Assembly (NCBI GenBank): GCA_039621445.1
Contig: CP154954.1
Location: 33,271,455 to 33,335,454, forward strand
Length of the DNA stretch: 64,000 nt
DNA from: Euglena gracilis
Taxonomy: Eukaryota
Direction of reading: 5' to 3'
This document shows, in pieces, positions 10,101-61,535 of the stretch; positions within the stretch are counted from its first letter, which is position 1; every line of letters begins with the position of its first letter. The translations under genes and the position numbers were made by a program. The notes under the pieces are model-generated. The model had not been told where the DNA came from, ran no database searches, and saw only the letters and a program-made list of their open reading frames with translations.

Positions 10101-13100
10101 AGACCCGAAAAAAAAAGTTTTCAACCTTTTTTCTGATTTTAGGCCATTTGACATCCAGATCAGGGGTTTTTTTAAGACCGGGGGGGGGTCCCCCCCACCC
10201 ACCCACCCCCCTGGGGGGGAGGGGGTCCCGGGGGACCCACAAAAATGGCCGAAAAATCGCGAAAAGTGCTAAAAATAGAATTTTTTCGGCGCCTGCGGCG
10301 CCGAAAAGTATATCCCACCCCCCTCCAGGGGGGGGGGGGGGAGGGGGTAGGGGGGACCCACGCACCACAACCCCCCCCCCCCCCCCCCCAGGGGTCCAAA
10401 CTTAAAAAAATCCCTGATCCAGATGGCCCTTGTACTTCCCCTGGAAAAGAGATACAATGAAATTTTAAAAAGTGCCTTAAAATTGAACATTAAAAACCTA
10501 TAAACAAAACTAAAACAAAAATCAAAAAAAACTTTGAAATTTTTAAAAATTGAGCCTTAAAAAATCATAACCCCAAGGTACCATTTGGGGCGAGGGGGGG
10601 GATAAAAATTTTGGAGGTGGCCTCCACGCCTTCAACTGCATTCACCACCAAATCAAAACCCCCTCCCAAAATGACCTGGCGGGGTGCCAAAAGACAAGAA
10701 CAATCTTGTTGCCTTGCCCTTTGCAAGGTTGTTCGTACACTGCCAGGATATTTGGGTGGTTCATACAAATTGCTCTTCTTCCTTTGCACCTTCCATTTTC
10801 CAACAATTCAATTTACCCACCAAATGGATTATCTCTTCTGAAGAAATACAATGTCCACCCAATTTGCTTTGCCCCGAATGGCACTCGGGGGGTTACGCTT
10901 CCTTTCGCCCCAGCACTTGGCTGTTGCTGGTCATTCAGTCGAGCTGGTGACTGTCATTGCCAAGCACCAAATCAGAATCAGAAGCCTTCTCCTGGTCAAC
11001 AATTGGGGTGGGTGGGGCAGCTGATGCTGAACATGATACCCACCGGAGGGGAAAATCCCCCGCCCACAGAGCACATGCATTTGGCTCTCACCAAAACCAT
11101 TTGCACGAAAACATTTTGTGGGCTTTCTTTCCTTTTGGTGCAACGCACGGTAATCTGGAACTGATTTCCTGGGCTTTGCCATTGTGCCAAAATTGGGGAT
11201 CTGAATTGGTCTGAGGGTCACCTGTGGAGGTCATCCAATCGAGCCGATGGGTGTCATTGCAAAAGCTCCGGATCAAAATCAACATAATCAATCCTCCCTT
11301 CCAAGCTGATTCATTTCACAATCCCTATGAGCTGGATCAACTAACTCATCCTTGCCTGGATGAGCCAGGGCTGGTGCGGGGAAGGGCGGGTGGGGGAAAT
11401 TGAGCCCTCTCCAGGCAAAGCCAACCTACCACAGCACCACAGACAAACGAATCATTATCCAAAACAGCATTCCCGCCAGTCCAGTGTGCTTGCCATTCAG
11501 GAGGAGGGGCTGTGGCTGCCGGTGGAGGTCATCCAATCGAGCCTATGGGTGTCATTGCAGAGCTCCGGGCCAAACAGCAAAGCTAATCCTCCCTCCCACC
11601 ACATTGGCAGCCGTCAATGGCCGCCCCACCCGTTTTCTGTGCCCCTGGAGAGACGGATGCTGATCAGCCAGGGGAATCATTGTGCCATCACAGTGTGAAC
11701 TCTGGTGTTGAGAAATATGATGTGCATCATGTCAGCCCATCCAATGCCAATTCAGGGTAACTGCATGTGAACAAACAGCTGGGGCAAGACAATTGCGTTC
11801 TTGAGGGGACAATCCATCTCAACCCATTGCCATGGGCCATCAGACTCCAGACTCCGTACACGAATCACAATTCATTTCGGTGGTGTGCAACGGTGGTGGT
11901 CATCACAAGGCACAGCGGCCACACATCCGGGGATGAATCCACCTGAACAAGTGGGGGATGTCCAGCCTTGTGGGGGGGGGGGGTTTGAAATGGGCGCCTC
12001 CGAGCAGGTTCCCAGTCCACTTTTTTCAGCGCAACCTTTTTCGGGGGGGGGTCAGGTTGGGCGCAGCAGAGGACGGGGGGGGGGGCAAAATGGGCCAACA
12101 GCCCAGAGGATCAATAACACGCGGGGGGGGGGGGAGTTTCAATTGCCTTCTGTCTGTCACTGGTTGAAAAACACGGGCCAAGCAATCAGGGCGGACAAAG
12201 AATCAACGCGAGGCTCATTGTGGTGTGCAGTAAGGGGATCATCACGTAATCCACTCCAAATTACTGAACTTCGTAGCTGGTTTGGGGCACTGAGTTGGTC
12301 TGGGGGACACGACGCCTGTGGAGGTCATCCAATCGAGCCGAGGGTTGTCATTGCAGAGCTCCGGATCAAAATCAACAAAATTAATCCTCTCCTCCAAACA
12401 GCATTTTACAAGCCCAAACTTCCTTGGCTTTTGATCATCACTACGGATCAGGCTTTTGTTTAAAGACCCGGGGGGGGGGTACTTCCTAGCCAATCGGCAA
12501 GACACTGGAAAAAATGGACTAGCTAGACCCCCCTGGGGGGTCCGGGGGTCCCCCCAACTGGATAAAAAATTTTCCTCCGGCACTGCACGCCGAGGTGGAA
12601 ATGACGTTTTTAATAGGTTTTGGGCTGATTTTGTTCCGAGAATTCCCATTTTTGGCCATTTGGGGGGGTCACAAAAAAATTCCGGCGCTTTGCGCCGGTC
12701 ACAGGAAAAAGTTTTCCACTAGCTAGCCCTGCTAGCAGATCCCCCCAGGGGGGGGGTAGCCCTGCTAGCAGATCCCCCCCGGGGGGGGGGGTCTGCTAGA
12801 AATCTCACTAGCCAAATTTGGACTAGCTAGTCCATCCACCCCCCCCCCCCGGGGGTACTGCAATCCCTTAAGCAAAAGCCTGCTACAGATCAGGCTGTTT
12901 TTTTTACCAACCTGGGGGGGGGGCGAGGGGGGGGGTCCGGAGAGCCTGCCCAGGCAGCTACCACCCCCCACGGGGGAGGGTCGGATTTCGGCCTGCGCCC
13001 AGGCACACTCCTTTGAAAATAGGCCATTTTGGCACCCCCCCGCCTTTGGCGCTGGTGTCTGTGCTAGGGCACTGTTGGCTGTGGCTTATCGGGGTTGGGA

Positions 13101-16100
13101 GTGCCGTGGAGTGCCTTTGCCCCCCCCCTTCGGTTGGTGTCGGCACCACCTTAAAAACAGCCTGCTACGGATTACCAAAATTCCCTTCAAAAATGATAAT
13201 TTCCCACAATTTCTTGCTTCGATCTTGCAGTACAGCACAGGAAGCGCTGGTTTGGGTCGTTGACGGGCATCATCTTTGAGGCACACCAAAAACCTACAAA
13301 TGCCTTAAATTAAAAATCTGGCAAAATATTCTCCAAACAAAAATGCAACCATAAAATCTCAGCAACAACAGGCCAACTCCAGGGAAACAAAATGATTTCT
13401 TCAAGCCAGCCCATGGCCAGCCCAAATGCGCAACAAAACCCCCTTCCCATTCCATTGTGGGACCACCCTTCCCATTCTGCCACAAAACCGCGCAAACGAA
13501 TCCAAATCCAAAATAGGATTCTTGCTGGGAGGCTGCCTGCAAAAATGCAGAGTTCTGCATTCAGGCAAATCTCAGTTGCTTGCGGCCCCTCTTGGAATGC
13601 AAAGCCCATGAGGGAATATGAGCAACTTGACCACTGATGGTGTACACAACCAAGCTACCAATGGCGGAAAAAACTCAAGCCTTTCCCAGCCTTCTCGCTT
13701 TCACTCGGGGGGGGGGGGGGTCCCGGGGGTTTCGATGTTTGCCCATTTCCGGACCCTCCAAAAACACAATTTTTTGGCAAGTTCCCGGAGTAACACCATC
13801 AAAAAACGGATTTTTGCACATGTCGCCATATTATCAGACACCCCAGAGCCGAAATAAAATTTTCGTTAATTTGCGCAAACCAACACAAAAAGATGAAATG
13901 AGAATGCTGCTGCCTAAATTGAGCCCCCCCCCCCCCGGCAGAACCAGGGTTGCTGCACCCAACCCACCACAGCACCACACACAAACAAATCATTATCCAA
14001 AACAGCATTCCCGCCAGTCCAGCGTGCTTGCCATTCAGGAGGAGGGGCCGTGGCTGCCGGTGGAGGTCATCCAATCGAGCCTATGGGTGTCATTGCAGAG
14101 CTCCGGGCCAAACAGCAAAGCTAATCCTCCCTCCCACCACATTGGCAGCCGTCAATGGCCGCCCCACCCGTTTTCTGTGCCCCTGGAGGGACGGATGCTG
14201 ATCAGCCAGGGGAATCATTGTGCCATCACAGTGTGAACTCTGGTGTTGAGTAATATGATGTGCATCATGCAAACTTTTGCGCCTTGTCGGCTGTCAGCCC
14301 ACCCAATGCCAATTCAGGGTAACTGCATGTGAACAAACAGCTGGGGCAAGACAATTGCGTTCTTGAGGGGACAATCCATCTCAACCCATTGCCATGGGCC
14401 ATCAGACTCCAGACTCCGTACACGAATCACAATTCATTTCGGTGGTGTGCAACGGTGGTGGTCATCACAAGGCACAGCGGCCACACATCCGGGGATGAAT
14501 CCAGCCGGACAAATGGGGGATGTCCAGCCTTGTGGGGGGGGGGGGGGGGGGGGGCTCTCCGAGCAGATTCCCCGTCCTTCATCACAATCACACTGTGAAT
14601 TCCCTTCCCTTCTCAACAACTAACAAACCTCCCCAACTGGCGGTCAGCAATCCAAGCCATCTCCTTCACAATGCGTTCGGTTCAACGAGATTCACATCCA
14701 TCCTCTGGCCCCAAAACGCAATGAGCAAACACAACTGGCGTATGTACTTTCCTTTCCCTTTATAACAACTTACATTGATTGTAATACGATTTCAATAAGA
14801 TTACAACCTTTTACAGTTGACATCTCAACAATTTACAATTTGGTGCAGTGGAGATGCATTGCCAAAGCTGGTTCCCGCTTGCCCTTCCCTGTGTCAATTG
14901 CCTTCCGTCCGTCCCTCGCATTCATGTCCCCTGCAGTTCAAATTCTCAAACAAATCAAAATGCACACTAATTCCAGTTCCCGCCCCTGTGTATGTCAATC
15001 CGCAAACCATTCCCCACCTTGCGGAGATGATCAGCCCCGTTGCTGCCAGCGCAGAGTGGCGCACTTGTGGGGTCATCCAATCGAGCCGATGGGTGTCATT
15101 GCAAAGCTCCGGATCAATATCAAAATGGTTAATCCTCCCCTCCAAGCTGCCTTCTGTCAGAAACTCACAATCCCCAATTTTGTTGTCCTTTTGAGCAATG
15201 CAGGGATTTTTTCCAAAAAAAACCTCGGACCATTCAATTCTCAACCTCTGCTTGCCTGGATGGGCCAAGGCTGTGGTTGGGTGTCTGGACCAGGCAACAC
15301 CAGATGAGTGGGTTCGACTCACTCAACCCACCACAGCACCACACAACCGACTCATCCAAAAGAGGGTTCTTGCCTGAAAAAAAAAAGCGTCTCTGCAATT
15401 GCATTCAATCACGCACAAATCTCAGCTGCTTGCGGCCCCTCTTGGAATGAAATCCAAATGAGGGAATATGAGCAACTTGACCGCTGACGGTACACACAAC
15501 CAAGCAGGAGGTAAAAACCCAGGCTGCATGTGTGGGGGGTTTGGGGAGCTGTTGGGGGGGGGATCGTCAGGGGGTTATTCTTTTAGGGTGCCTTGAATGT
15601 CCTTGGGAACCCTTAAAAAATCATTCTGGAAAATTTTCGAAATTCTTCACATGCTTTTGCAATATCTCAGCAAAAACAGGCCAATCCTGGGGGAAAAACG
15701 ATTTCGGGCATCGCTGGAACATCCTCCATCAACCCAAACTCGAAAAAAAAAGTTTTCAACCTTTTTCTGATTTTAAGCCATTTGACATCCAGATGGCCCT
15801 TGTACTTCCCCTGGAAAAGAGATACAATGAAATTTTAAAAAATGCCTTAAAATTGAACATTAAAATCCTATAAACAAAACTAAAACAAAAATCAAAAAAA
15901 ACTTTGAAATTTTTAAAAATTGAGCCTTAAAAAATCATAACCCCAAGGTACCATTTGGGGCGAGGGGGGGGGATAAAAATTTTGGAGGTGGCCTCCACGC
16001 CTTCAACTGCATTCACCACCAAATCAAAACCCCCTCCCAAAATGACCTGGCGGGGTGCCAAAAGACAAGAACAATCTTGTTGCCTTGCCCTTTGCAAGGT

Positions 16101-31600: not shown

Positions 31601-34600
31601 CTCCTTGTCGTCACTGCGCGGTCCAGCTGCGGTTTGGCCCGTTTGAGCAAGTCCCAGATCCGGAATTGCACACGGAAATACTCTTTCTTGATCTGCTCCC
31701 GCCGCTTGATGAGCCGCAGAACATTGAGCACCTCCACCTCCAGGGCTGAAGGGTGGCTTGCTGTGCATCCGGGCTGGTCTAAGGGGGACCCACTTCTCTG
31801 CTGCGCTAAAATGGCCTTTCGGCAGCCTTCAAGCAGAAAAAACTTGCTGTCCCTCATGCCTCATGGACCGACCGCCCTCATCGTTGGGCATGGGGGGCGG
31901 GGGAATGAGTTAAAATGAGAATCCTGATGATGGTTGATGCTGGTTGGACTGTGGTTGGTTTGATAAGAAAACATGCTGAACAAAAAACCTCCCAGCATTC
32001 GTTGGGCAGATGCCCTAAAACTGCCCCAGTCATCCCTGCCCTCCAGACCGTCTCGCTGGCGTTGTTGTCAGGTGATGCCTGACTCCGTTGCCCACCCCCT
32101 GCACAAAAATAACACACCATTTCGAAAGAACATCCCCCAGAATTGATTGACCCCCCTCATTTCCGGCAACAAAAATTGCGGTCCAAACCCCTGGAGCCTC
32201 CCTCCCTCTTGAAACCCCCCCCCTGGAGCGGGGGTCACGCAGGTGTCAATTGAATCTCTGGTTCCGAACCAGGCTGTTTTTTTTACCAACCCTGGGGGGG
32301 AGGGGGGTCCGGAGTGCCTGCCCAGGCAGGCACTACCCCCCCCCTTAGTTACAAGGCTTCTTGCCTGATTATGGCCGGCGCTAACTGTTTATGGCCGGCG
32401 CTAACTTCGCTTCTGGCCCAGTTTGCTGCGTGGTGAGTGGCCAGGGACCCCTTACACCAGTCCTCTTTTGTTGCTCCCCCTGGCCGGGTGAGTAACTCTG
32501 GTGAAATTCCAGCGCTGTAGGGACCATGCATCTCTCTAAGGTTTTGCGAACCCCCCCCCCCCGGGGGGGGGGGGGGTTGCAGCCACCCCCAATTTGGGCC
32601 CAGCCCAGGCGCAGCAACACCCCCCCGGGGGGGGGCGATGCTCCTACCCCACCTAGCCAGCCCCTTTTTTGGGGGGTCCAGCCCAAAATTTTTCGGCGCA
32701 AAGCGCCGAAATTTTTTGAAAAAATGTGTTCAAAAGTGGCCAAAAATGGGGTTTGGGGGGCGTTTGGGGCATTTTTGGGGGGTTTCAGTGCATCATTTTT
32801 TCAAAACTGTGTTCTGCAGGTCATTTTTGGGCACTTTTCCGATTTCAGTCCAGCTCGCCCCGGTTCAGGCCCAGCCCCCCCCCCCGGGGGGGGGGGGCGG
32901 GCTAGCCAGCCCAAATTTCTAGCCAGCCCAAATTTCTAGCCCTAGCCCAGCACCCCCCCTCCGGGGTCCTCAAAGAGATGTATGGTAGGGAAATACACTC
33001 ACCTTGTGTGGTTGGTGTGGTTCCCGTGGGTGGGTCTACACCCTTGCGCCCCACTACCCCCCCGGGGGGGGTCGAATTTCGGCCTGCACCAAAACAGATT
33101 CCTTTAAAAATAGGCCATTTTTGGCTCCCCGGCACCTTCGGCACCGGGGTCTGTGCCAGGGGACTTTTGGCCGTGTACCCTACCCCTGGGGGGGGGGGGG
33201 TCGGATCGGGAGTGCCTGCCCAGGCAGGCACCCAGTCCCGGGGTGGGGTTGGCACCCGACTAAAATACAGCCTGTTCTGAACAGGTGAAACTTGCGGTCC
33301 GAGCGTTGGAATCGGGGGGGGGGGGGATAAAACATAATCCCTAAAATCACCGGCAGGAAAAGAACATAGGCATCATCTTCTTGGAGATCATCCAAAGCAG
33401 CAGAGGTGTTGGCCAGCTTGAACCGGGGACAGTTGCGCAAATAATTTTGACTCTTCTCAATGTCCAAAGAAGGAATCTGCTGTCATTTTTTCTGGGTGTT
33501 AAGAAGGCGAATTTGATTTTGACACCTGTTTCCAGGGCAATCCTGCGCACCAAGTTTTCAGGAGCGCAACTCCTCAGGTTCTACAGTCGTGGGCTGTTTT
33601 CACCACCCGCAGGAGGCAGCTTGGAGGGGAGGATTAACTATTTTGATATTGATCCGGAGCTTTGCAATGACACCCAACGGCTCGATTGGCTGACCCCACA
33701 AATGTGCCACTGTGCGCCGGCAGCAACGGGCTTACCCCCCCCCGCGAAACTGTCATGCCCGAGAACCTGTCGCTCCAAAATCTATGCTTCCAAAATTTAG
33801 CTTGTGGTTCGCAGAGCCCTTTCGAGGGGCTCATAACTCGGGATCGAGTCAAGGAGAATGAGTGGAGACCACTCATTTTCACAGGTAATTCACAATCTAT
33901 AACATGGCATATATCCGGGACCACAACACTGCACACAACCAAAATCACGACTGCCACAAAAACTAAAAAAAATACAAAACACGAGAAACAAACGTAAATG
34001 AAACGCAATGCACCCACCTCCCCCTAAACGCCTGCTCCACCAACCACCAAAAAAAGCAGACAGGAGGAAAACACCAAATTGCTCAAAAGCTCACAGAGGA
34101 CACCCAAAAAAGCACCAAATTGCAAAGATTCCTTTGCGCGGTGGTGGAATGGTTGCTGGATATCAAAAGGATCGGCACTGGGCAGTGCTCAGGACCACAA
34201 TGAACACACCCAAGCGTGCTGCTTGGACGAGGCAAAGACACAACTGACAAGCAAACGTTTTTTGCAAAAGAGACATCAAGATGCGGATATGTTGTCAAAG
34301 TCCTAGGGGGGTCTCGAAAAAACAAATCTATAATTAATTCGTTTTAGAATCTTTCACATAGAATAAATAGGAATTTGAACCAGAATTTGCTTATACAAAT
34401 CTATATTCCGTTCTAGTAGAAAATTCTATATCAAATTATATTTTGGGGCTTCTGGCTAAAAAGAACACAAACAGCACAAATTACAAATTACAAACTCCTT
34501 TTTTGGTGGCGAAAGACGATGTGGGCCAAAAATCGGCACCATGTGAAAACAACAATGAGGGGTCAGCCAAACCCACTGCCCAGGGTTTCCAGGACTCGCA

Positions 34601-42703: not shown

Positions 42704-43203
42704 CAGGGAATTTCTTAAGGACCCCCCGGGGGGGGGGTCCAGCCTCCGGCTGGCCAAAAGGCTGCTTGCTGGATTTGAGCTGCTGGCTGGACTCCCCCCC
42801 GGGGGGGGGGGGGGGGGGGGGGAGGGGGGTTTCCGGGGTTGGAGCTGGCTGGGCTGGGCTGGGTCGAAGAAAAACAAAAATTTCTAACACATTTTCGACA
42901 TTTTGATGGGTGGAGCTAGATCAAGGCTGGGGGGCTGTGATGGAGGGGCTGTGATGAGGGGGAAAAATGCAGGGATAAGTGAGCTGGACAGCCCAGTTGG
43001 CTGGCCGGCCTGCGGCCGGCTGGGCCGGCCTTCGGCCGGCTGGCCCGGCCTCCGGCCGGGCTGGACCCGACTTTATTTCACTCGACCCCGGGGGGGGGGG
43101 GGGGGCTCCCAGCCCAAATTTGGGCTGCTGGCTGGATTTGAGCTGCTGGCTGGCTGGACCCCCCCCGGGGGGTAGGGTACCCTCCGGCTTAAGAAATTCC
43201 CTG
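42704..43203. mobile_element. hAT-like MITE (500 bp), TSD CCAACATG
   Basis: 16-bp TIR cagggaatttcttaag and a perfect TSD. Near-identical to 45391-45894. Confidence 0.95.
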
Positions 43204-43348: not shown

Positions 43349-46300
43349 CTAAAGGCCCTTCGCGCTGGTGTTTGCCCGAACCACAAGGTGCCGGGTCTCG
43401 TCCAAGGGGTAGTTGTTCATGCTCTGGATGGCCCCTTGGGCCTCCTCCGGGGAGGTGAAGTGAATGAAGGCAATATTGCCCACCGGGTTGGAACCAGGTT
43501 GGGGTCGGCGAGGCCTGACGGGCACCATCGGCGGGCCGAACCGACCAAAAGAGCACAGCAAACGCCCAACCTGACTGGAGCCTCGGGTCAGCTGCACCTT
43601 GGAGATGGTGCCGAACCCCTCAAAGAGAGACTGCAGAGCAGTCGGGGACAGGACGGCAGCCGCCAATTGTGATGGGCGAAATGGGAACCGGGGACCAACT
43701 GGGCACCTTCGCAGGGCTCATCATTTGGACGGAAGACGGCCCCTCACTTGGGCCTATAGAAAACCGTGATTTGGCCCCAAAACAGGAAACCGATTGGGGG
43801 TTCCCATTGGGATCCCCGGGATAACTATTCCGATGTGCCGGCCGGATTAGGGTGTGAAAAAGATGCAGATATCAAAAAACTAGCCAGATAACGACAGTTT
43901 TGAAAATCTCCTGCTGAGCTGGCGGATGGGGGGAAACCGGCAAAACGACAGCGCTGCAGGACACGCGGACTGATTCCTCGGAGTCATCCCCCCCCGGAAT
44001 GGGAATGGGGCGACCGTCCTGCTCTCATCCCAATCATGGGGCACCCCGCCGACGTAGACAGACGTGGGGCTCGCCACTGCACCACCCTTGCCCCGGCCCC
44101 GGCCCTTGCCCAGCCCGCGGCCGCCGGGGAAGCCCGCCGGGGCCCCGTAGGCAAAGCCGCCCCCAAAGCCACCAAAGGCACCGCCACGGGGAATCTTGAA
44201 CGCCGGGCCACCGAATCCATTGTCCGCGGAAGGCTTTTTTCAAGCACGTGGCAATGCAAAACAGAATCACACAGAACGATTTAGGTGAACCACTCTGATT
44301 TTCTTCGAGGACAATGCCACCCGTTCAGGATTCTCACAAGGGATTGGTGGTAAAAAAAAATGGCCAAAAAATGGTGCAAAAAGAAAAAAAATGGAGCAAA
44401 ACAAGGGAAATATCCGGACATTTTCCAAAAATTTTCTGTCGCGGCCAAAATGGAATAAAAATATTTAACCAATTTTTGGTCATTGGAAAAAATTTTACTG
44501 CCGCCAGCGAACTCCCCGCAGGGTCAGTGTTGGGTCCAGGTGCCTGCCAGGGGGAAGAAAGATGAAGCCCCCTTCGGCCCTCCCGGCTGTTGGGGTGACC
44601 CAAAAAGGGCCGGTGTTGGGATTCGGATTCGCCCGACGTCAGGCCGGGTGGAGGGGTGCTGCTGTGGCTGATTTTGGCCCAGCTGCAGCAGCCCCCCCCC
44701 CCCCCCCCGGGTCTGCAAAACCCGACAGACATGAATAATCCTGCCCCGAAAAGACTGAGATGAGAAGAAGAAGATGAGGGGTTTAAAAGAAGCCTGCCCA
44801 AGGGGCCGCTTCATCCCAGTGCCCGGCAGAGCATCCCGCAGCTGCGTGGAGGACATGAAGACCTTCAGCGTTTGGGGGAAATCCTCGTCGAGAGGGTAGC
44901 CGTGAGAGGCAGGGGCATGCTCGCACTGCCGCCCGAAACCTTGGAGGAATTCCGTCCCATCCAAACGATGCAGAAACTCACATTCAAATGATGCGAGGAC
45001 CTGGGGTTCCAAAGCTTCATTTTAGGTCACCGATTCCTTTGGTTTTGCTCACTTCCGCGATATGTTGACATCGGTTCTCCGACCCCAAGAACAGCCCAAA
45101 ATAAAGGGGCCGGATTGGCTGGAAAATGGCCTGAGAAAAATGGGGATGAACTGGAAAACCTGGTGAGACAAAAAAAAGTCATCACTCTTGAGGGGGTTTT
45201 CTTGAATTGAGAGAGAGGACGTCGTGGGCTGAACCAAACATGGTTCTGCCTCTGGCTTTGAACCTGTGTTTGGTCGGTTGGAAGGTGAGGATGACCCTGG
45301 CAGAGCCACTCAATTGCTGCCTGTGCCTCTTGCGGTGTGCCAAACCTTGCATAACCGACCTGGTGCCCTGACTTGGTGGTGCCAGGGGACCAGGGAATTT
45401 CTTAAGGACCCCCGGGGGGGGTCCAGCCTCCGGCTGGCAAAAAGGCTGCTGGCTGGATTTGAGCTGCTGGCTGGACCGCCCCCCCCCCGGGGGGGGGGGG
45501 GGGGGGGGGGGGGGGTCTGGGGCTGGAGGGGGCTGGGCTGGGCTGGGTCGAGGAAAACCAAAATTTTCCAACACATTTTTGCCATTTTCGACATTTTGAT
45601 GGGTGGAGCTAGATCAAGGCTGGGGGGTTGTGATGGAGGGGCTGTGATGAGGGGAAAAAATGCAAGGATAAGTGACCTGGGCAGCCCAGTTGGCTGGCCA
45701 GCCTGCGGCCGGCTGGCCCGGCCTTCGGCCGGCTGGCCCGGCCTCCGGCCGGGCTGGACCAAACGTTATTTCACTCGACCCCGGGGGGGGGGGGGCTCCC
45801 AGCCCGAATTTGGGCTGCTGGCTGGATTTGAGCTGCTGGCTGGCTGGACCCCCCCCCGGGGGGTAGGGTACCCTCCGGCTTAAGAAATTCCCTGCAGGGG
45901 ACTCAGCAAGCGCCCCGTGGACGCTGTGTGCAGGGATGCCGAAGCGCAACCCCCCCACCCCAAATGGGCCATCTGAGGGCATTTCCCCCCAAAATTTTTG
46001 GCAATGGCCAAACCTCCCAGGGTCCACCCCGGAGTTCCAGGGGGGGTCTTCCAAATTAAAAAGCCTGAGCACCCCTGAGAAACCCGCCTAAGAAAAATTG
46101 CTGGGCCCCCCAATCCTGGGATGCGGGAGGGTCCAGCTTGTCCCCCAAAAGCCCAATCCAGCTTGGTCAGCATTCTTGAGCCAAAATCTGGAGGTGCAAA
46201 TCCAAAAGACCCCCCGTCACTTGGTGACCCACCCCCAGGGGGGTCCACCTCAGAGGCTGAAAATTTTGGGCTGGCTGGAAAAAGGCTGACCCCCCAATAG

Positions 46301-49637: not shown

Positions 49638-51786
49638 AATATTGTTGCGTACCTGTGAGAGCAAATGAGGGTGGAAATGCAACTGAAACCGTGTTGAATA
49701 AAAGCTTTCGAAGTGTGCTAATCAGGGCGTTTTTTTTACGACCCACTGGAAAGGATGAACAGGGGAGTTATCCAGTCAAACGAGGAGAGCGGGACAGGGC
49801 TGTGGGGGGAAGGCTGGGGAGGAGGGGATGGACCATGGAGGGGGGGGATATGCAACAAGGCTCACCAAATATGCAAGGCAAAAAAAAAATGCAAAAAAAA
49901 ATACGCAAGCTTTGCATAAATCCCCTGAGGAGCTCCCCGGGGCTGTGCACTTTTTCACTGGAGATGACTTCGTTGGTTCCTAAAATCTGTTTTGAAAATT
50001 TTCCAAGACAAATTTTTGAAAGCTTTTTAAAGTGCCTGGGCCAGACCCCCCCAGGGGGGGGTTCTCGGACAGAAAATTGGTTTTGGTGCGAGGCAGCCAA
50101 TTTTTTTTGGGAAATGCCCTATTTGCTATTTTTGGAACCTGCCGAGGAGGGGGTGGGGGGAGGTCCACACCATACCATTGGTTGCCGACCCCCAAGGGGG
50201 GGGGGTAACTTTCCACTTTCAAAAAGCCAGTTATTCACTTTTCAAAAAAGGATTTGGTCAAACCCCACCTCCGGGGGGGGGGTCTAGGGCCAAAAACCAG
50301 TCAGTCACTCCGAAAAAACCAGTCAGCCACTCCCGGGGCAGAACGGGAAGGCCTGGGGGGGGGGGGGTCGACCCCCCCCCACCCACCACAGCATCTTCAT
50401 CGATTTCGGGAAAATAGGGATTTTGGCCGAAATTTTTTGAACTTTTTTGAAAAATGAATTCAAAACACATGATTTTTTGATGGAAAACCACATTTTTTTC
50501 CACAAAAAAATCTCAAAATTTTCAGGGTTAAAAATTGGTATTCTTAGGAGGGGGGGGGTGAAAAAAACCAACGTCAAAAAAAAGTGGACCAAATTTTGGC
50601 ACAGTCAAATTTTACTGACATTTTTTCTCTGTGAAATTTTTTTGGATTTTCAATGGCATTTTTTTTTGGCTTCCAAACCAGCCCCCACCCACACGGGGGG
50701 GTCGACCCCCCCCACCCACCACCCTGGCTGTTTGGCCGATTCCCGTTCCGCCCTGGCCACTCCCCTGGGGTGGTGTGGTCCTGAAACAATGGGATAATCC
50801 AGACCCCCCTTCCGCTCACCTAATACCCCGGGGGGGGGGGTTCAGACCCCTCCGGTCAAAGGGGTTGGACTACCCCCCGAAAGCCCGGATGCCTGGTGAA
50901 AGCCCGGATGCCTGGTGAAAGCCCGCCTACCTGCCAACCATGGGAAACCTGTTCATCCCTGGACCTCACGCGAAGCAATGCGAACTGCACAAAACAAAGG
51001 GGTGAGAGGATCGACGGTGGTGCCTGTGAGCCGTCGCCTTCATCAGTGATGGTGCGTCCGAACAGTGAGGCCTTCTTCAGGCATCAGGCGATAATTGTGG
51101 CCTAAAACGCACAGCAAACGAACGGAGGAAAGAGGGAGTTCAGAAAGGTTCGGGATGGCGTGCAGCACCAGTTGCGGCAAGTGGTGACCGCAGCCATTGA
51201 AAAGATACATCTCAAAAAAATGAATGGATGGAGAACTTGACAACAGCGTTTTAAACCAAAAAACCACTGTCCCCCAACGAAAGCTTCTCTTTCTTTTGGC
51301 TGGAGATAATGTTTTCACTTCCTACTCCCATTGACGAAATTTGAACGATGCTTTCCGCAAGAAAAAGACATCATGCAGAGGAAATCAAATGGGTTTGAGA
51401 GTGACCCCTTTGCCATCAACATGCGTCAAATCCCACATGGTTTTTAAGTTCTTTGGGCCTCCCAGACGAGGAAGGAAACTGAAAACAAAAAGTAACATCA
51501 CGGTCTCGATTGTGTTTCAGAGGTATCTTTGGCAGAATACAACCTCCGTCGCTTGCATATGTGAAATACCTTGATCATAATTCTTGGCTTTGTGCTATGG
51601 CGTCTCAATTTGAGTGCTTTACAATGCAGAGGAGGGAGCAGGCTTCTTATTAAAATACGAGGGGGAACAGAGGAAGGGAACTGTCCATCCATTTTCCAAA
51701 TTAACTTGGGAAATGCCCTGCTTTCCCGCCAGGGGTTTTATTTTTAAGACCGGGGGGAGGGGTCCCCTCCACCCACCCCCTTGAGT

Positions 51787-52012
51787 GTATGTATATGTGT
51801 ATGTATGTATGTATGTATGTATGTATGTATGTATGTATGTATGTATGTATGTATGTATGTATGTATGTATGTATGTATGTATGTATGTATGTATGTATGT
51901 ATGTATGTACGTACGATGTATGTACGTACGATGTATGTATGTATGTAGTATGTATGTATGCTTGTATGTACGTATGTATGTATGTATGTACGTATGTATG
52001 TATGTATGTATG
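51787..52012. repeat. (TATG)n microsatellite
   Basis: About 225 bp of tatg repeats with interruptions. Confidence 0.98.
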
Positions 52013-52014
52013 TA

Positions 52015-52680
52015 CCTCCCCCCCCTGTCCAACGACCACTAATGTTCGTCTCCGACCGGGGGGGGGGGGGGGGTCGTTAGACAAGGGGGGTGGGCCCCAG
52101 GCCGGCAATAAATTGGCCACATATGGGGGTCATTTTGGACAACTTTGGGCGATTTTCGGCATTTTTGACGACTTCTGCCATTTTTTGGCCATTTTTTGCC
52201 ACGTTTGGTTTCATTTAGCCATCCTTGGCCACTGTTGGCCATTTTGGGTTTCTTTAGCCATTTTTTGGCCACTTCTGGCCATTTTGGGCAATTTTGGGCC
52301 ACTTTTTGCCCAATTTCAGGCCATTTTTGCCCACTTTTGGCCATTTTTGGCCAACTGGAATCAAATTTCAGCCGTTTGGAACAATCTCACACTTCCATAA
52401 ATTTCAGTCATTTTGGGATGATTTGTAACTATTTTGGGGAGCTTTTGGCCTTTTTTTGTGCCGTTTTGGCATTTTCAGCCATTTTAGGGAGCCATTTTAG
52501 GGTGGTAATCCCAAACAAATTGCAAAAAAAGCATCACTGCAACATGCAAATGCAACTAAACCGAAAATAAAATCACACAATTTCTTTTGCAGTACTGAAC
52601 CAACATCGTATACAAAAAGTCGTCTCTGACCGGGGGGGGGGGTCGTTAGACAAGCTCGGTCGTTGGACAAGGGGGGGAGG
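52015..52680. mobile_element. TA-flanked MITE abutting the microsatellite
   Basis: ta-cctcccccccctgtccaacgacc ... ggtcgttggacaagggggggagg-ta. Confidence 0.75.
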
Positions 52681-53132
52681 TATGTACATCCATCCATCTA
52701 CCCATCTACTCAGGGGGGGTGAAAAAGTGAGCTCCTTTTCACTCGGGGAAAAGTGAGGGGGACCACTCACTTTTCCCCGAGGTTGGTCCAACCTGCCAAA
52801 AAGGCAGGTTGGTCCAACCTGCCAAAAAGGCCAAAACGTCGTATATTTCCTTTGATTTGGTGTCTCCTCAAAGTTCAAGTATCCATGCCTTTTTCTGGGT
52901 TTGCCTCCCAAGCAGTGACCTGTGCCGGCTTGCAGATAAAGCTTTCAAAATGGACCAAAAAGACTTTTTCAGGGTGCCTGGGGGGGGCACATATCTGAAA
53001 TTGTGCGCCTGGAGCAAAGTGCCGGAAGCAGGGGTTTTTTTAGTCTTGGACCCCCCCCCTGGGGGGCAGGCAGGGCAGGCGGGTCTGGCTGAGCCCCCCC
53101 CCCCCCCAGGTCCTTCAAGGGAGGTGGGATAT

Positions 53133-53308
53133 ACCACCCCCCCCCCTTATTGTCCCACCGACCTCCCCCCGGGAGGCCCGACCGGACGATAAGGGGGGGG
53201 GGGACAATAAGGGGGTACCAAAGGAATTTCATTGGCCGAGCCAAAAAACCCCCCGTCGGCCGGGGCCGAGGGACAATAAGGGGGGGGGGACAATAAGGGG
53301 GGGGGTGG
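53133..53308. mobile_element. Short TA-flanked MITE; second copy at 63150-63327
   Basis: TIR ccaccccccccccttattgtccc / gggacaataagggggggggtgg with TA on both sides. The two copies are nearly identical. Confidence 0.88.
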
Positions 53309-53822
53309 TAAAACCCCCTCCCAGTGATAAACCCCCGAAAGTTTAATGGATCCGGTTTGGTTGGTCGGCCGAAGGGGGGGGGGTTATAAGTGGGGGGGGT
53401 TTAAGTCCCGGAATTGTTGATGAAAATCCGACCCCCAAAAATGACCCCGAAACCCCCCCAAATTGGCAATTTTTGCCAAATTTGGTCAAAAATGGCATTT
53501 TTGACGATGGTTGGTCTCAAAAAAAAAACTGCCAAAAAATCAACTTTTGGTGGTTTGCGGCCGAAAAAAAATTGTCCCCGGTGGCTTTCGTTTTTCTTCC
53601 CCGGGGGGGGGGGGTTATAAGTCCCGGTTTGGTTGGTCGGCCCGAGGGGGGTTTATAAGTAGGGGGGGGGGGGTTATAAGGGGGGGGGGTTATAAGTGGG
53701 AGGGGGGGTTTACTTTTCGGTGCTGAAGGCGCCGAAAATTTTTCAAAAGGGTGCTACTTTTGGCATTTTCGCAATTTTTTTGGCACATATCCCCCATGAC
53801 CCCTGACCCTCAAAGTGCCAAA

Positions 53823-55317
53823 CGGTAGACTGGGGGGGGGGGGTAGTGGGTAGTCGGCCGACTAGTCGGCCGACTACCCAATTGGTCCACCGACTAGTCG
53901 GCCGACTAATTGGTCGGTAGCTAGTCGGCGGGGGGGTAGTGGGTAGTCGGCCGACTAGTCGGCCGACTACCCACTCTAATGTACTAACGGGTCAAAACCG
54001 CCGACTTTTAAGCCCCCCCCCTGGGAAAAAAAATTTGTCTAATTCACCTCAACGCCGGTCAAAACCCACCCAAATGGCTCCAGAACCCCCCAATCGGGGG
54101 TGAATATGCAAAAAAATTGGGGGAAAATGTCCATTTTGGGCCACTTTTGACAAAAATACACCTCTCCCCATGAATTTTCAATATAAGTCAAAATTTGCAC
54201 AAAAAAAGGGTCTTATCCCTCCAAGTCTATTGCCAACATAGAAGGGATTTTGTTATTTGAGGGGGGGGGGTGCGGGGGGGGGGGGCGGAGCCCCCCCCGC
54301 CTATGCCAAAGTGAGCCACAAAAACGACTTAGCCCCCGAGTATGTTGCAAACACAGAAGGGATTTTGTTATTTGGGGGGGGGGTGCGGGGGGGGCGGAGC
54401 CCCCCCCGCCTATGCCAAAGTGAGCCACAAAAACGACTTAGCCCCTGAGTATGTTGCCAACAGAGAAGGGATTTTGTTATTTGAGGGGGGGGGGTGCGGG
54501 GGGGGCGGAGCCCCCCCCGCCTATGCCAAAGTGAGCCACAAAAACGACTTAGCCCCCGAGTATGTTGCCAACAGAGAAGGGATTTTGTTATTTGAGGGGG
54601 GGGGTGCGGGGGGGGCGGAGCCCCCCCCGCCTATGCCAAAGTGAGCCACAAAACGACTTAGCCCCCGAGTATGTTGCAAACACAGAAGGGATTTTGTTAT
54701 TTGAGGGGGGGGTGCGGGGGGCGGAGCCCCCCCCGCCTATGCCAAAGTGAGCCACAAAAACGACTTAGCCCCCGAGTATGTTGCCAACACAGAAGGGATT
54801 TTGTTATTTGAGTCTCGGATTGGGGTGGAGGGGGGAGTTTTCTGCCTCTCGTGATGCAAAACGCAGATTGCAGATTGCATTTCTAAAGGATTTTAATGTA
54901 ATCCCTATTTCATCATTGGTTTTTTACCCCTCCGGACCCCCATCAAGGGCACACCCACCCCCCACTGACCAAAGATTTCCATCTGGGGGTGTTTATTTAG
55001 GCGTAAGACACTTATTTGGACCCACCCGGACCATTTCCGGGTGATTTGGGCCCGCCACAGGCCATTTTTATGACCGCCGACTAGCCACCGACTAGTTTCC
55101 ATTGGATTTTGTTCATGGGGGGGGGGCTTAAAAGTCGGCGGTTTTGACCCGTTAGTACATTAGAGTGGGTAGTCGGCCGACTAGTTGGCCGACTACCCAC
55201 TACCCCCCCCCCCCTGTCTCGCCGACTAGCTACCGACTAGGACTAGTCGGTGGACCAATTGGGTAGTCGGCCGACTAGTCGGCCGACTACCCACTACCCC
55301 CCCCCCCCAGTCTACCG
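53823..55317. mobile_element. Long-TIR (~195 bp) foldback element carrying an internal minisatellite; right end tandemly duplicated to ~55720
   Basis: cggtagactggggg...cttttaagccccc at 53823-54020 is inverted at ~55116-55317. 55088-55403 is repeated at 55404-55720. No TSD recognised. Confidence 0.8.
54228..54812. repeat. ~110-bp minisatellite, about 5 copies
   Basis: Unit atgttgc.aaca.agaagggattttgttattt...cctatgccaaagtgagccacaaaaacgacttagcccccgagt. Confidence 0.95.
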
Positions 55318-55918
55318 CCTTGCGCCGACCCTCAAGGAAGGTTTCGGTTTAAAAAATGGTGTTTTTTTTTCACTGGCTGTCCAGGGGTTCACAAGAAAGT
55401 CCACCGACTAGTTTCCATTGGATTTTGTTCATGGGGGGGGGGGCTTAAAAGTCGGCGGTTTTGACCCGTTAGTACATTAGAGTGGGTAGTCGGCCGACTA
55501 GTTGGCCGACTACCCACTACCCCCCCCCCCTGTCTCGCCGACTAGCTACCGACTAGGACTAGTCGGTGGACCAATTGGGTAGTCGGCCGACTAGTCGGCC
55601 GACTACCCACTACCCCCCCCCCCCAGTCTACCGCCTTGCGCCGACCCTCAAGGAAGGTTTCGGTTTAAAAAATGGTGTTTTTTTTTCACTGGCTGTCCAG
55701 GGGTTCACAAGAAAGTCCACTGGCCAATTTTTGCCGGTTGCAGTCCAGCCCCCTCCCTCAAAGGGGGGGTCTGCTAGGATGCAGTGAAATCTTTTATATG
55801 GGCGGACATGTTTCTGGGCTGAAAAAAATTGTCTTTTGGGCAAACAGATATCCACAAGTTGAGTTTCTTTATGATCCCTCCACCATTCAAGAGAAGCAAG
55901 CCAAAAACAAGCTGGTGC

Positions 55919-58900
55919 CTAGATTCGTGGGCTGCTGGTGTTGCCCCGCACCACGAGGTGACGGGTCTCGTCCAGCGGGTAGTTGTTCATGCTCTGGATG
56001 GCGCCTTGGGCCTCCTCTGGGGTTGTGAAGTGGATGAATGCAATGGCATCAGAGATGCAGGCTTCAGTGTCCAGGTGACAAATTCGGCAGGTAAAGCAAG
56101 CAGCAGGTTTTGTGGTTTTTGGCCAGTAAACCATCATAGAAACCTGTTGTGAACAGGCCATTGCTTGAGGAACTCAGCGGATCCACTGGCTAGCCATTTT
56201 GCTGGACACTGGAAAAAATGGACTAGTTAGACCCCGGGGGGCCCCCAGACTGGGAAAAAATTTCCTCCGGCGCTGTGAGCCGAGGTGGAAAGGAGGTTTC
56301 TTTTGCATTTCTCTTCGGCACTTCGCACTGAAACCGAAACCCAGGCCTCCTCCAGCCCATCTGTGTCAGAGGGTTTTTTAGGACCCAGGGGGGGTCTGGA
56401 CCAAAACACTCGGCTTCCGGGAGGGGGGGCACCTTTGGGGGTCAATTTTGGGGTCCAAAAAAAACTTCGGCGCGAATAGAAGAAAACCCTGCCTCCAGCG
56501 GGGCACCATACTCCCCCGAGCTATTCCAAATGGTCAATATTGAGCACTTTTGACAAAAAGTGCTTTTTGAAAACGTCCAAAAAAACGTCAATTTTGGACT
56601 GTACTTTTTTGAACTGCACTTTTTAAAAAGTGCTATGACAGTGACCTAATCCCGCCCCCCCCCCATGGGAATAGCTCGGGGGGGCATGGTTCCCACTCGC
56701 CCTACCCCACCCCCCCAGGGGGTTCGGCCGGGACCCATCCACCGGGTCATGAAACTTAAAAAATTTCTGGTCTGTGACCCCGCCGGGGGGGGGGGGGTCT
56801 TCTGAGTTTAGAAAAGCCTTCACTGGATAGCACACTCTTGCATTGCTGCGGCAGGTTCCTCCTTGGAATGTCACAACGACATTTTCAGTCAACCACATCT
56901 TTCATTTGTGATGATTGTGAACCAACAACTTGAAAAACCTCAATCGTCATCGAGGTCTCTTGAGCAGTGCAAGCGTATAACGCTCAGTTGTTACAGAATG
57001 GGTCATTACCTTTTCCCTATCAATGGATTCGATGAGAAACAGCCTCCACTGCAAACATCCCTGGGTGTTCCCAACTGGGTTGCTTCCACGAGTGAGCTGC
57101 ACTTTGGTGATTGTTCCAAATCCTTCAAACAGGGACTGGAGGGCAGTCAATTGAAGAGAAGAGCCACTTTGAATCTCGCTTGGTTGTTGGAAATGTACAG
57201 AGGGGCTATTTTACCTACCAGACACCTTCATTAAGTTCATCTGGGTGCACACACAAAGGGATTTTGTTAGGGTGCGTGTTTTGGCCATCCTTGCCTTGCA
57301 CACCCAAGGGGGTTTTGTTATTTTGGGGGGGGGTCCCGGGGGCCGACTAAGTTCGCGTTTTGGCAATCATTTTCCTTTTTGGAGGGATATGGGACGCTTT
57401 TTGACAGTTTCAAGGCCATTCCAATGTGTTTCCGTGCATTTTGAGTCAAATTTACTGACTCAAATTTCGGGGGGGGGGGCTTAAATTCAAAAAAATCGGG
57501 AGGTAATGCGGTTGATTGGAGGTCGGGCCGACCTGGTCGGCCTGACCTCCAATGGTCGATAAGCCATAGCCAATGGTCGGCCCGACTTCGTCATAGCCAA
57601 TCATCCGCACGGAGCCCTGTTTTGGAAATAGAGCACCGTGCAGCGTGGAAAAATCTGATGACACCGCTGGTCATCTGGTGATAAGAGCTCGAGGGGCAAC
57701 TTGGCACCCTAACGTTGTACGCAGACCGAGATACGCTCGCGATCGTCGGATCAGCCAGAATCTCAATCGAAATTTGTCGTGATTTTTGGTGTTCCTTACT
57801 TTAAGATGCTTAATGAACCACACAGAAGCGATTTTTCTCTTCGAATCGACGGCCTGAGGGGTCCAGGGGGGCACAAGGATTGTGAAATTAGGATTTCCCA
57901 GTCAGGATACTGGGATACTGGGATACTGGGAAGAGTACTGTGCAGCGTGGCTGAATTTGGTGGTGATTACTGGTTGTCTGATGAAAAGAGCTTTCGATTG
58001 AGGGGTGAGTTTGTACCTGAGCGATCGACACAGCCAGAGATACGCTCACGACCGTCGGAATTTGGCTATCAGATCAGTGGTGAATGATTGGTCCTGGGAG
58101 TGTCCTTACACCGAAGGTTGGGAACGCCGGTTTCCCCAAAAACGCCGCTTTAAAGAGGGGGGTGGGTTGGTTTCTCCGGGCAATTGGGCTTGGCTCGAAA
58201 GGCAGGTTGGGACGAAGATTTTTGCTTTGCATGAGAAGATCTTGATCGGCCTGACCCCCCAAGTAACGGATGGTGGGGTGTGTTGGAAGCATGCTGCGTC
58301 TGTGCTCTGGAAACACTTGGCACTTCCCTGGGCTCATCCCAGTCATGGGGTACACCTCCAACATAAACGGATGAGGGGCTGGAGGCTACACCACCAGGCT
58401 GAAATTGAAATTGGGGGAGGGGGGTCTGGGAGTGCCTCAGGCAGGTGCTGCACCCCACCCCAGGGGGGTGCAGCACCTGCCCCACCCCCCCCCCTCCTGG
58501 CCCGCAGGGGGGTCCGGGGACCCCCTCTCCCCCCCAGGGTTGGTAAAAAACCCAGCATTTTGGGCACTTTTTGGCCCACGACCTGGCCCAAAATTTTTGA
58601 CCCCCCAAAACGACCAAAAGTGCCATTTTGGGCACTCTTTGGGCAAAAATTTGCCAAAAATGCAAAAATTTTCGACGGGTGCCCCCCCAGGGTCGGTCCG
58701 GACCCCCCTGGCAGGTGGGGTGGTCCGGCCCCCCCTGCGGGCCAGGAGGGGGGGGGTGGGGGACACCCCCCCACCTAAACCATGTACGCCCTCCTTATAT
58801 CAAACCTTGGGCACTACCCCCCCGGGGGGGGTCGGATTTCGGTCTGTGCCCAGGCACATTCCTTTGAGGATAGGCCATTTTTGGCTCCCCGGCGCCGGGG

Positions 58901-60425
58901 TTGTGCCAGGGCACTTTTGGCCATGTGCCCTACCCTACCCCCGGGGGGGGGGGGGTCGGATCAGGAGTGCCTTGGAGTGCCTGCCCCCCCCCCCGGTGGG
59001 GTCGGCACCCAACTAAAATACAGCCTGGCAGGAACCCCCGGTCAGCATTGCCTTGAAATTCAGCCTGTGCACCACCTTTCCCACGGCCTTTTCCAGCACC
59101 TTTGCCAAAACCACGGCCACCAATGAACCCAGGAGCTGCAGCAAAAGGCATTTCAGAATTTGACATGAGGTGAAACGAGGTGGCTTGGTTGAAGAGGTGG
59201 CCCAAGCACCTCAGGGCACCGAAGTCCGTTTTTTTTGACGATGACGGTTTACCTTGCTTGTTGCTGTGTCCGCTTCCAAAAATTCCTCCAAGGAAAAAAA
59301 CGCCAAAAAGGTCCTGGTATCCAAGAACCAACGACCTTGAATCCTTTGAGTCAGTACTTGTTCGCTACTCGACCGCCACCGAAATTTTTCAAAGTCTTAT
59401 TGGAATATTTAAGGTTATTGAAGGAGTAGGGTTTGGTGCGCACATGGACATGTTGTGCAACATGGCCATGTGCGCACCTAACCCTACCCTTCAAATAACC
59501 CCACAATAAACTGGCGGTCGAGTAGCAAACAAGTACCTTTGAGTCAACCAAGGACTTGAATCACCAAAAGTGCTCTAAAAAGTGGTCTTCTGAGGCGAGG
59601 CAGACAGTATCCAGCAACCCCCAACGTGCAGGTTTTGGCGATTCGCATTCTCTCCATAAGTTCTGGTTGGTGTGGGCTTCTCCATTTGGTGAGTTTTTGA
59701 AAAGACAAGTTGTCCAAAGAATAGAGTCCCTGCCAAAAACAAAATTTTCTTTGTTTCTTCCGATTTTTTGAACAAGCAAAAACCAAAATCAAACAACATC
59801 ACAACTGGTTCATTGCCGTTAGTGAGGTTCCAGGTTGATTTGACTTCCTCATGGTTCTCACACTTTGCAGTTCAGAAAAAGTGCTCAGAGAAACCTGAGC
59901 CTCTCACAAGCACATTTGAACAGTTGTCAAATTCTGTGCACTCCCCCCAACCGTGGGAATTTCGCTGCAGGTGCGCCAAAACCATTGTCCAGCGGGCGCT
60001 TTGGTCGGGTGCCAGGAAGGGCATCGCGCAATTGAGTTGAAGACATGAAAACTTTCAAAGTGTTTGGGAAGTCCTCGTCAATCGGGTATCCGTGAGCATC
60101 AGGGAAGCTGTCAGGTTGAAAATTTCATATAAAACTTCATATCATTTTCAGCAGCCCTGCGCAAGCCATTCAATGGCGGCTTGAGCTTCTTGTGCCGTTC
60201 CAAACCTTGCATAACCAACCTGGTGTCCAGCCTTGGTGTGATTGATGATGCACCGTTGGACACCGTTTGCGAATTTGAACATAAGGCGAAATTCACGAGC
60301 CGTTTACAACAGGAACCAATCAAAAAAAGAGCAAGAAATCTCACTGGAGAGTGATTCCTGCTCATATAGTCGGGAAGGTTTCCGACACAAATAGTTGTAG
60401 ATGCTTCAGGGATTGCGAGTTCCAT
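55919..60425 (-). CDS. Two-RRM RNA-binding protein (paralog B), 7 exons, all six introns nonconventional
   Basis: Exons 60425-60364, 60304-60163, 60094-59940, 59149-59071, 58389-58334, 57148-57067, 56044-55919 join in frame: MELAIPEASTTICVGNLPDYITAREFRLMF...HGYPIDEDFPNTLKVFMS...SVYVGGVPHDWDETALQSLF...GNIAFIHF...RGNTSSPRI*. The stop codon aligns with paralog A. Confidence 0.9.
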
Positions 60426-60623
60426 ATTTGAATATCCCTGAAAGTGACAGAAACCACAGCGTCCATTCAAAACGCCATTTAAAGCAGTAAGCAAGTTTAA
60501 ATTCAAAAAATATTTATTTCTGAAAAGGTTTGTCTCTCGGGTTTTTCCTTTTTTGTCCCTCCTCTCTCTCGCTGGAAACCATAGGATCAATTCCTAATTT
60601 GAAGTTCTTTCTTAGCGTCTTTC

Positions 60624-60649
60624 ACTTTCTGAGTGTCTATTTTTTTTCG
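60624..60649 (+). other. Genomic copy of the Euglena spliced-leader exon ACTTTCTGAGTGTCTATTTTTTTTCG
   Basis: Exact match to the 26-nt E. gracilis SL as I recall it. It is followed by CCCTGG rather than a GT donor. Confidence 0.92.
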
Positions 60650-61535
60650 CCCCTGGTGGGGTCTGAAGATATCACTACTGAGATTACTGTGGATGATGTC
60701 GAAGACCCAATGGACATTACCCTCAGTCCGGCTTCGGTACAGAGTGTCAATGAGGTACCGGCACCCCCTCCAAGACAGCCAGAGGAGCAGTCCAGAGCAG
60801 TGCTGAAGGGCAAAAGCAAACGGCCTGACAAGCGACATCGAACAATCTTCAATTTGCACATGGAGCTGAAACAATTACAAGCCAAAATGAAGGTAAAAGA
60901 AAAGAAATAGAAGGCAGAAGAAGAGGAGCTAAGAGAACAGCTGAAACGTTTAACAGCGACTGCCCCTCCCCCTTTGCCGCAGCCCTCTACTGACCAGATC
61001 CCAGCTTCGGCTGGTTGGCACGTTGTCCTTCTGCCCCCTCTTCCCCCAATTTGCCCCCATCTTTGGTTCAATGTGTTCTTCCCCACTCCCTCTTCCACCC
61101 AAAATGTGCCCCATGTACCTGATTTGCTGGGATCTGGCCCCCCCCCACTGTGGCACACAGCACCCCCCAGCAAACTGGTCACAATGTCCCTGTGGCTTCT
61201 CCTGCCCCTGTTGTGCCTTTGTCTGGGGTGGGGTTCATTAGAAAAAACTTCAAATCCAGGAATGAAGTGAGGTGAAATTTTGCGAGAAAAACAGAATTCT
61301 TCAGGAATTTCGCCTCGCAGATTTCTATTCAGACGGGGCACGGCGGGTGGGAGTGCCCGACTACGCAGTCAGCCCGCAGCTTACCTTGGTCACACCCGTT
61401 TTGGACGACCTCAGGGGCAGGCTGGGTGCCAACCATGCCACCGTGACCACCTTCCTTAACAACCCACAGCGAATCGCGTCCGCGGACCAGGAGCTGCGGA
61501 AGCAGAAGTGGTGGAATCACGAGCTATTTCGCTAA
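60650..61535 (+). pseudogene. Probable retrocopy of a trans-spliced mRNA, product unknown
   Basis: A coding-like frame follows the SL directly (MDITLSPASVQ...ELKQLQAKMKVKEKK*KAEEEELREQLKRL) with an internal TAG at 60908-60910. A further GC-rich coding-like block lies at ~61330-61535, and its linkage is uncertain. Confidence 0.55.

Follow-up and report, generated by a model that had tools for sequence, protein, structure and literature searches.

A spliced segment bounded by inverted repeats and an 8-bp direct repeat: a candidate transposon-derived nonconventional intron in Euglena gracilis

Two paralogous genes and an intron present in one of them

We analyzed a 64,000-nucleotide stretch of the Euglena gracilis genome (assembly GCA_039621445.1, contig CP154954.1, forward-strand positions 33,271,455 to 33,335,454), which we call the window and number from its first letter. 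A motif search and tblastn identified two paralogous genes on its minus strand, paralog A (~43360-49640) and paralog B (~55913-60438, plus an intron in the 3' untranslated region, or 3'UTR). Exon open reading frames (ORFs) of both match RRM_1 in a Pfam scan that covered the unspliced exon ORFs. When the exons of gene B, as set by RNA joints, are joined, they give an open frame of 233 residues. Here, we focus on a 673-bp segment of gene B (58395..59067, minus strand) that is lost from the transcript within a 681-nt intron and that resembles a MITE, or miniature inverted-repeat transposable element, in its terminal inverted repeats (TIRs), its flanking target-site duplication (TSD), and its alignment with a repeat family. 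Based on the RNA joints, the joined frame, and Pfam, it lies between an upstream exon that encodes an RGG-rich linker (59071..59147, minus) and a downstream exon that starts the second RRM (58333..58389, minus). In protein B, this position is the Gly/Arg-rich linker directly before the second RRM.

Read on the minus strand from 59075 to 58387, the segment and its flanks run in the order GTGGTGCA–CAGGCTGAA…TTCAGCCTG–GTGGTGTA, with 655 nt between the TIRs. The ends of the element are CAGGCTG...CAGCCTG. Its two 9-bp TIRs (CAGGCTGAA, 59059..59067, and TTCAGCCTG, 58395..58403, both minus) form a perfect inverted repeat and contain, respectively, the CAG and the CTG of the published nonconventional splicing code (PMC12501133). 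The 8-mers that flank the element are identical at seven of eight positions. In the upstream copy (GTGGTGCA, 59068..59075, minus), letters 1-5 are exon and letters 6-8 are the N3 spacer of the intron; in the downstream copy (GTGGTGTA, 58387..58394, minus), letters 1-5 are the N5 spacer and letters 6-8 are exon. An earlier note, made from the letters of this DNA, had described a GTGGTG(C/T)A TSD and a 9-bp TIR at 58387..59075, and both its coordinates and its letters are right. The element is short and contains no coding gene, as none of the six ORFs across it has a Pfam match.

At the equivalent place, paralog A has a single unbroken GTGGTGCA (44078..44085, minus) within a continuous exon. The intron is therefore paralog-specific, as the earlier note had proposed. 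Across the joint, the spliced product reads K-G-G-V-A-S-S, collinear with paralog A as the note had claimed, and, as a correction to the note, the alignment requires no gap, since seven residues lead from KGG to VYVGG in both proteins.

The two paralogs differ in intron content elsewhere too, and in both directions. Paralog A has an intron of its own of ~4 kb (45383-49428, minus), recognized by homology with the unbroken exon of B. The ends of this intron, ATG-CAGGGGAC...GTCCCCTG-GCACC|A, fit N3-CAG/CTG-N5|R, and a clear flanking repeat is not kept. Another apparent intron of A (~44231-44799) seems to be missing in B, and a 790-nt intron of B with a 12-bp TIR (59148-59937) is missing in A.

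Excision from RNA

We mapped RNA and DNA data over 55800-60700, which covers gene B only, using a raw-read RNA-Seq run (X21), two contig sets from different studies whose RNA nature is guessed (X1 and X3), and a DNA-like contig set (X20). One joint, 58388->59070, removes 681 nt, and seven letters fit on either side of it. It is supported by 403 raw reads of X21 (228+175) with 134 start places, as well as by one contig of X1 and one of X3, and it does not occur in the DNA-like run X20. In the two exon bins that flank the intron, X21 reaches a depth of 72-122 per strand class, vs 0.4-3.4 in three bins that lie wholly inside the intron (58424-58915), where the few reads may come from other copies of the repeats.

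Because of the repeated letters, the RNA data permit eight equivalent registers (58389+k..59069+k, k=0-7), and the register that fits N3-CAG...CTG-N5|R of the published code is k=1, i.e., 58390..59070 on the minus strand. These are the intron boundaries first proposed in the earlier note: the RNA removes exactly 681 nt, and the proposal is the code-fitting one of the eight registers. Since 681 = 673 + 8, the mRNA loses the CAG...CTG element plus exactly one 8-mer's worth of sequence. The one mismatch between the 8-mers shows which letters are retained: the T found in the mRNA comes from the downstream copy and makes a Val codon. Altogether, the observation of a TIR- and TSD-bounded spliced segment at 58387-59075 is confirmed.

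Full-length circular RNA has been reported as a product of nonconventional intron excision (PMC11282704; PMC12501133). A backward joint, the sign of a circular intron, is absent among the 15 joints listed (of a set with 81 more), in a library that is cDNA RNA-Seq. No contig of the DNA-like run X20 represents an empty site, with the limit that contigs drop rare variants. No known RNA gene accounts for the intron, as Rfam gave no match at gathering score over 55800-60700.

The five other coding introns of gene B measure 59, 68, 790, 1185, and 1022 nt, and none has GT-AG ends as listed. The intron at 56043-57068 occurs in two RNA joint forms, one of 1022 nt and one of 1023 nt with one extra A, each with >200 reads; these may represent allelic or paralogous variation, or a wobble of the 3' cut. 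In the 3'UTR, 633 reads pass from 55913 to sequence at 51550-51571, which defines an intron of 4341 nt (51572-55912, minus) with no CAG/CTG at the usual offsets of its ends. At 60438, 293 RNA reads have a loose end upstream, which in transcript sense is a T run ending in C. This resembles the 3' terminus of the euglenid spliced leader, in which case 60438 would be the trans-splice acceptor of gene B.

Fit to the nonconventional splicing code

Knock-in genetics published in 2025 gave the signature of Euglena nonconventional introns as 5'-N3CDG-/-CH'GN5-6|R-3' (PMC12501133). In register k=1, the intron reads GCA-CAG...CTG-GTGGT|G, which is an exact fit. Like the introns described there, it has CAG at +4..+6, CTG at -8..-6, a 5-nt 3' spacer, a purine-first exon, and complementary ends. 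Its splice signals are no different from theirs; what it has in addition is the 7/8 TSD and arms that belong to a repeat family. No register among the eight gives GT-AG, and the 3' ends are TG, GT, GG, or CT, never AG. In register k=1, each 8-mer copy is cut after its fifth letter, and thus one intact 8-mer is rebuilt in the mRNA. The outer intron ends are complementary over 9 bp. The minimum free energy (MFE) fold of the whole intron instead pairs an inner CAGGCUG with the 3' end, so we do not use the fold as support.

These features separate the intron from introners, which are known from Micromonas, Aureococcus, dinoflagellates, and others. As reviewed in 2024, introners are likewise DNA transposons with TIRs and TSDs that turn into introns upon insertion, with the TSD helping to define splice boundaries, but it is the spliceosome that takes them out, at GT-AG or related sites (PMC11282704). 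The 681-nt intron follows the CAG/CTG code and has no AG 3' end in any register, and spliceosomal GT/GC-AG ends are not found in it.

Flanking repeats compared with chance

Among CAGGCTG..CAGCCTG pairs spaced 40-3000 bp apart in the 64-kb window, four of five have flanking 8-mers that match at 7/8 positions. Two of these four are copies of one segmental duplication, which leaves three independent sites of the CAGGCTG family. A family-blind scan of the window for CAG...CTG pairs with a perfect TIR of at least 8 bp found 11 pairs with flanks matching at 7/8 or better among 150, vs 1 among 750 in an offset control. By our own arithmetic, the equal-base expectation for a match of at least 7/8 is 25/65536. 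Once one poly-G artefact and two segmental duplicates are set aside, the 11 pairs represent eight independent CAG-TIR elements. In a register test, all 11 pairs fall at shift 0, where the 8-mers abut CAG and CTG, with a period of element+8, and the other periods have 0-2. Enrichment in this exact register only indicates that CAG-TIR elements carry an 8-bp TSD as a class. The features expected of MITEs are thus found within 64 kb, i.e., TIRs abutted by a TSD of fixed length, and related copies with their own TSDs at unrelated sites.

Other cases in the window look younger than the spliced element, namely the copies at 42704-43203 and 45391-45894, which have 8/8 flanking repeats and 16-bp TIRs. 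They are 500-504-bp copies of one element, 91% identical, and each has a perfect 16-bp TIR and its own 8/8 flanking 8-mer. The copy at 45391-45894 is inside the 3' inverted repeat (GTCCCCTG) of the ~4-kb intron that occurs in A only, and it duplicates the 3' CTG signal of that intron.

Relationship to repeat families and mosaic structure

The earlier note had likened the TIR to those of elements at 12891 and 32270, and this kinship extends beyond the TIR, with a ~215-nt 5' arm (72% and 79%) and a 3' arm (81%) in common. The 5' arm of the CAGGCTG MITE family occupies element positions 41-256 (58812..59027, minus) and begins with its own CAGGCTG. It aligns at 79.4% over 228 nt with the first 223 nt of a 1005-bp copy (33274-32270) and at 72.3% over 231 nt with a 274-bp copy (13164-12891). 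The 3' arm homology lies at element positions 607-655 (58413..58461, minus), which match positions 931-979 of the 1005-bp copy at 80.8% over 52 nt, and element positions 512-550 are an inverted piece of the same copy's 3' arm (92%). Both of these relatives have a 7/8 flanking repeat: the 1005-bp copy (32270..33274, minus), for which the repeat is 8 bp long, and the 274-bp copy (12891..13164, minus), which has a segmental duplicate at 18256-18522.

Between the arms, interior pieces (58584..58822, minus) belong to another repeat family, kin to a TIR/TSD element at 26703-27084; they align with 27097-26788 in two stretches, of 149 nt (84.6%) and 95 nt (91.6%). The spliced element is a mosaic, in which a further, diverged CAGGCTG terminus makes up the first 40 nt and precedes the family 5' arm. 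A search for the TSD of a nested insertion at element position 40/41 found no CTG followed by a match of at least 5/8 to the candidate 8-mer. Summed contig depth in X20 is 4.8e4-5.6e5 inside the intron vs ~40-47 over the flanking exons, which is not a copy number but fits very abundant repeats. A search of the window for empty sites of the 274-bp and 1005-bp copies found no further occurrence of their flanks other than at the segmental duplicate. A metagenome match to the 22-nt terminus of the 3' arm was rejected, as it consists of one locus with a chance 25-nt match on an unrelated contig of 45.8% G+C and has no further homology.

The 274-bp copy lies within a compound arrangement at 12449-13164 (duplicate at 17811-18522), where two different CAGGCT-type elements adjoin and have the middle 8-mer in common. 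On the plus strand, the order is CTACGGAT, element, CTACAGAT, element, CTACGGAT, an arrangement that suggests insertion of the second element into the TSD of the first. The duplicate belongs to a large tandem segmental duplication (~7000-24000) with a unit of ~5.4-5.6 kb, in which the same CAGGCTG context is seen at 9891, 15520, and 20877, and copies of the MITE, flanks included, lie at 12891 and 18256.

As for the superfamily, the TSDs of hAT elements are 8 bp long; such elements often begin with CAG or TAG, and they have a weak target preference for T at position 2 and A at position 7. The CAG-TIR elements of the window share the 8-bp TSD, as determined by the register test, and by eye they follow this target preference at about half of 16 positions in eight elements, which is weak evidence. 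No transposase of the hAT or the Merlin kind was found among 38 ORFs of the window or six ORFs over the intron. Merlin families with 8-bp TSDs have been described from E. gracilis, with TIRs that begin with GG (PMC8101967). The elements here are alike in TSD length, but they lack the terminal GG, as their TIRs begin with CAG and the repeat abuts the C.

Elsewhere in the window, long ORFs starting from 1908 include matches at 3713-6410 (plus strand) to RVT_1 (E 1.4e-08) and to Phage_integrase, a tyrosine recombinase (E 4.1e-05, a value that falls short of the curated cut-off). A DIRS-like retroelement may be present here.

Origin of the intron

We consider it very likely that a MITE-like DNA transposon with an 8-bp TSD became a nonconventional intron of paralog B after the duplication that gave rise to A and B. 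This supports the earlier interpretation of the locus as an insertion turned intron. A transposase would have made a staggered 8-bp cut at GTGGTGYA in the linker exon of paralog B, and a non-autonomous element with CAG...CTG TIRs would have inserted there, at a time when the gene for the two-RRM protein had already been duplicated. In the transcript, the TIR-derived CAGGCUGAA and UUCAGCCUG can pair, and the resulting helix would be recognized by the nonconventional pathway. Cleavage of the RNA would follow at 3 nt upstream of CAG and at 5 nt downstream of CUG; the two positions have equal offsets within their TSD copies, with the result that the element plus 8 nt is removed and the pre-insertion frame is restored. 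Excision may have worked in this way from the start, taking out the element and exactly 8 nt and restoring the mRNA. Gene B would thus remain functional because the element passes for an intron in the nonconventional splicing pathway. In this sequence of events, we infer the insertion by a transposase, its timing after the duplication, and the pairing of the outer ends in vivo.

The proposed timing draws on a comparison of the paralogs. At four-fold degenerate sites, A differs from B in 57 of 75 cases, which amounts to saturation, and the identity of A's 8-mer to the upstream copy in B is therefore partly luck. All eight TSD-derived positions that are now intronic (the N3 and N5 spacers, which are free in the published code) are unchanged, and the sole TSD mismatch falls among the exon letters of the downstream copy. 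That all eight are intact despite the saturation argues from the sequence that the insertion is much younger than the A/B duplication.

Several observations weigh against this reading or limit it. With 20-28% divergence among the family copies, the insertion cannot be called recent in absolute terms, and its proposed timing is relative, from A vs B. In Pfam searches, a transposase domain was found in none of the 38 ORFs of the window and in none of the six ORFs over the intron. Apart from the 7-nt CAGGCTG, the outermost 40 nt (5') and ~18 nt (3') of the mosaic element have no copy elsewhere in the window. The MFE fold pairs the 3' end with the CAGGCUG at element position 41, whereas the RNA shows that the outer site is used. 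The 274-bp relative shares its middle 8-mer with the neighboring element and so is not a simple single insertion. Finally, the other family copies, called free in the earlier note, may themselves lie within transcripts.

Other histories of the locus can be weighed against the same evidence. The transposon may have inserted before the A/B duplication, with paralog A later losing the intron precisely, e.g., by recombination with spliced cDNA. Such a loss would leave a single 8-mer, as is seen in A, and intron turnover is high in these genes, with several introns present in A but not in B or the reverse. We nevertheless regard this as unlikely, since an insertion of that age would have to keep all eight code-free intronic TSD positions intact while silent sites became saturated; at WDE|TALQ, an intron that A and B share, the sequence around CAG does differ between the paralogs. 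Another source of 8-nt repeats is the repair of a staggered double-strand break, in which filler DNA is captured and the overhangs are filled in, and this explanation was offered for intron 4 of gapC in E. agilis, which has eight-nucleotide direct repeats (PMC4770533). At our locus, the repeats abut the inverted repeats exactly, and random filler would not end in a TIR at both junctions. The arms also belong to a repeat family with copies that bear their own 8-bp flanking repeats, and we find capture of filler very improbable.

There is also a version with no transposon history at all: the intron would be an old one, its inverted repeat only the CAG/CTG pairing signal under selection, and its direct repeat a coincidence. 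Splicing is described as needing CAG/CTG pairing whatever the origin of the intron (PMC12501133), and by eye the five other coding introns of gene B show matches of at most 2/8 (three introns) or no clear repeat (the rest). A chance match of at least 7/8 has a frequency of about 1 in 750 in the offset control, and the enrichment and register tests already argue against chance. Coupled with the long homology to other elements and an intron interior that is highly repeated in the DNA-like run, this leaves chance with very little credibility. Insertion of a MITE-like transposon into paralog B after the duplication is the explanation that we carry forward.

Relationship to previous work and implications

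The hypothesis that nonconventional introns originate from MITEs dates from 2013; under it, introns should end in TIRs and have TSD-like repeats where they join the exons (PMC3935182; reviewed in PMC11282704). Transposable elements had at that time not yet been identified in euglenid genomes (PMC3935182), and TSD-like repeats at intron junctions are noted in the 2024 review (PMC11282704). Across the available text of papers from 2013-2025, the MITE origin is still presented as a hypothesis (PMC3935182, PMC4770533, PMC11170887, PMC11282704, PMC12501133, PMC12621601), and the Discussion of the 2025 knock-in study describes the origin of nonconventional introns as unclear (PMC12501133). The locus in E. 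gracilis adds to the 2013 hypothesis candidate family members both outside and inside a gene.

The closest precedent is gapC intron 4 of Euglena agilis ACOI 323, a strain-specific intron with eight-nucleotide direct repeats that was reported in 2016 and tentatively attributed to double-strand-break repair (PMC4770533). It is likewise a lineage-restricted nonconventional intron with 8-nt direct repeats. The available text of that report names no repeat family (PMC4770533), while the arms of the intron described here match elements with 8-bp repeats of their own. In the literature searched, supplementary files aside, we found neither the argument that 3+5=8 nor a link between nonconventional introns and named repeat families. 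What is new here is the link to a repeat family with its own 8-bp TSDs, together with the equality between the 3+5 spacer rule and the length of the TSD.

The locus unites an RNA-verified nonconventional intron, a TSD that the cuts split 5|3, an intron-less paralog, and TIR/TSD kin within 64 kb. It also suggests a simple explanation for the 3+5 spacer rule and makes the hypothesis testable genome-wide with assemblies and RNA-Seq data that already exist. Nonconventional introns are numerous, with a share of 71.8% of introns in E. agilis (PMC12501133). We tentatively suggest, as a possibility that we hold at somewhat less than even chances, that nonconventional splicing is a precise excision at the RNA level matched to one class of DNA transposon (CAG-TIR, possibly hAT-like), and that most such introns are decayed copies. 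If this is true, the spacers of 3 and 5 nt would add up to the 8-bp TSD, a new insertion into an exon would leave the RNA together with one TSD's worth of sequence, and the gene would survive.

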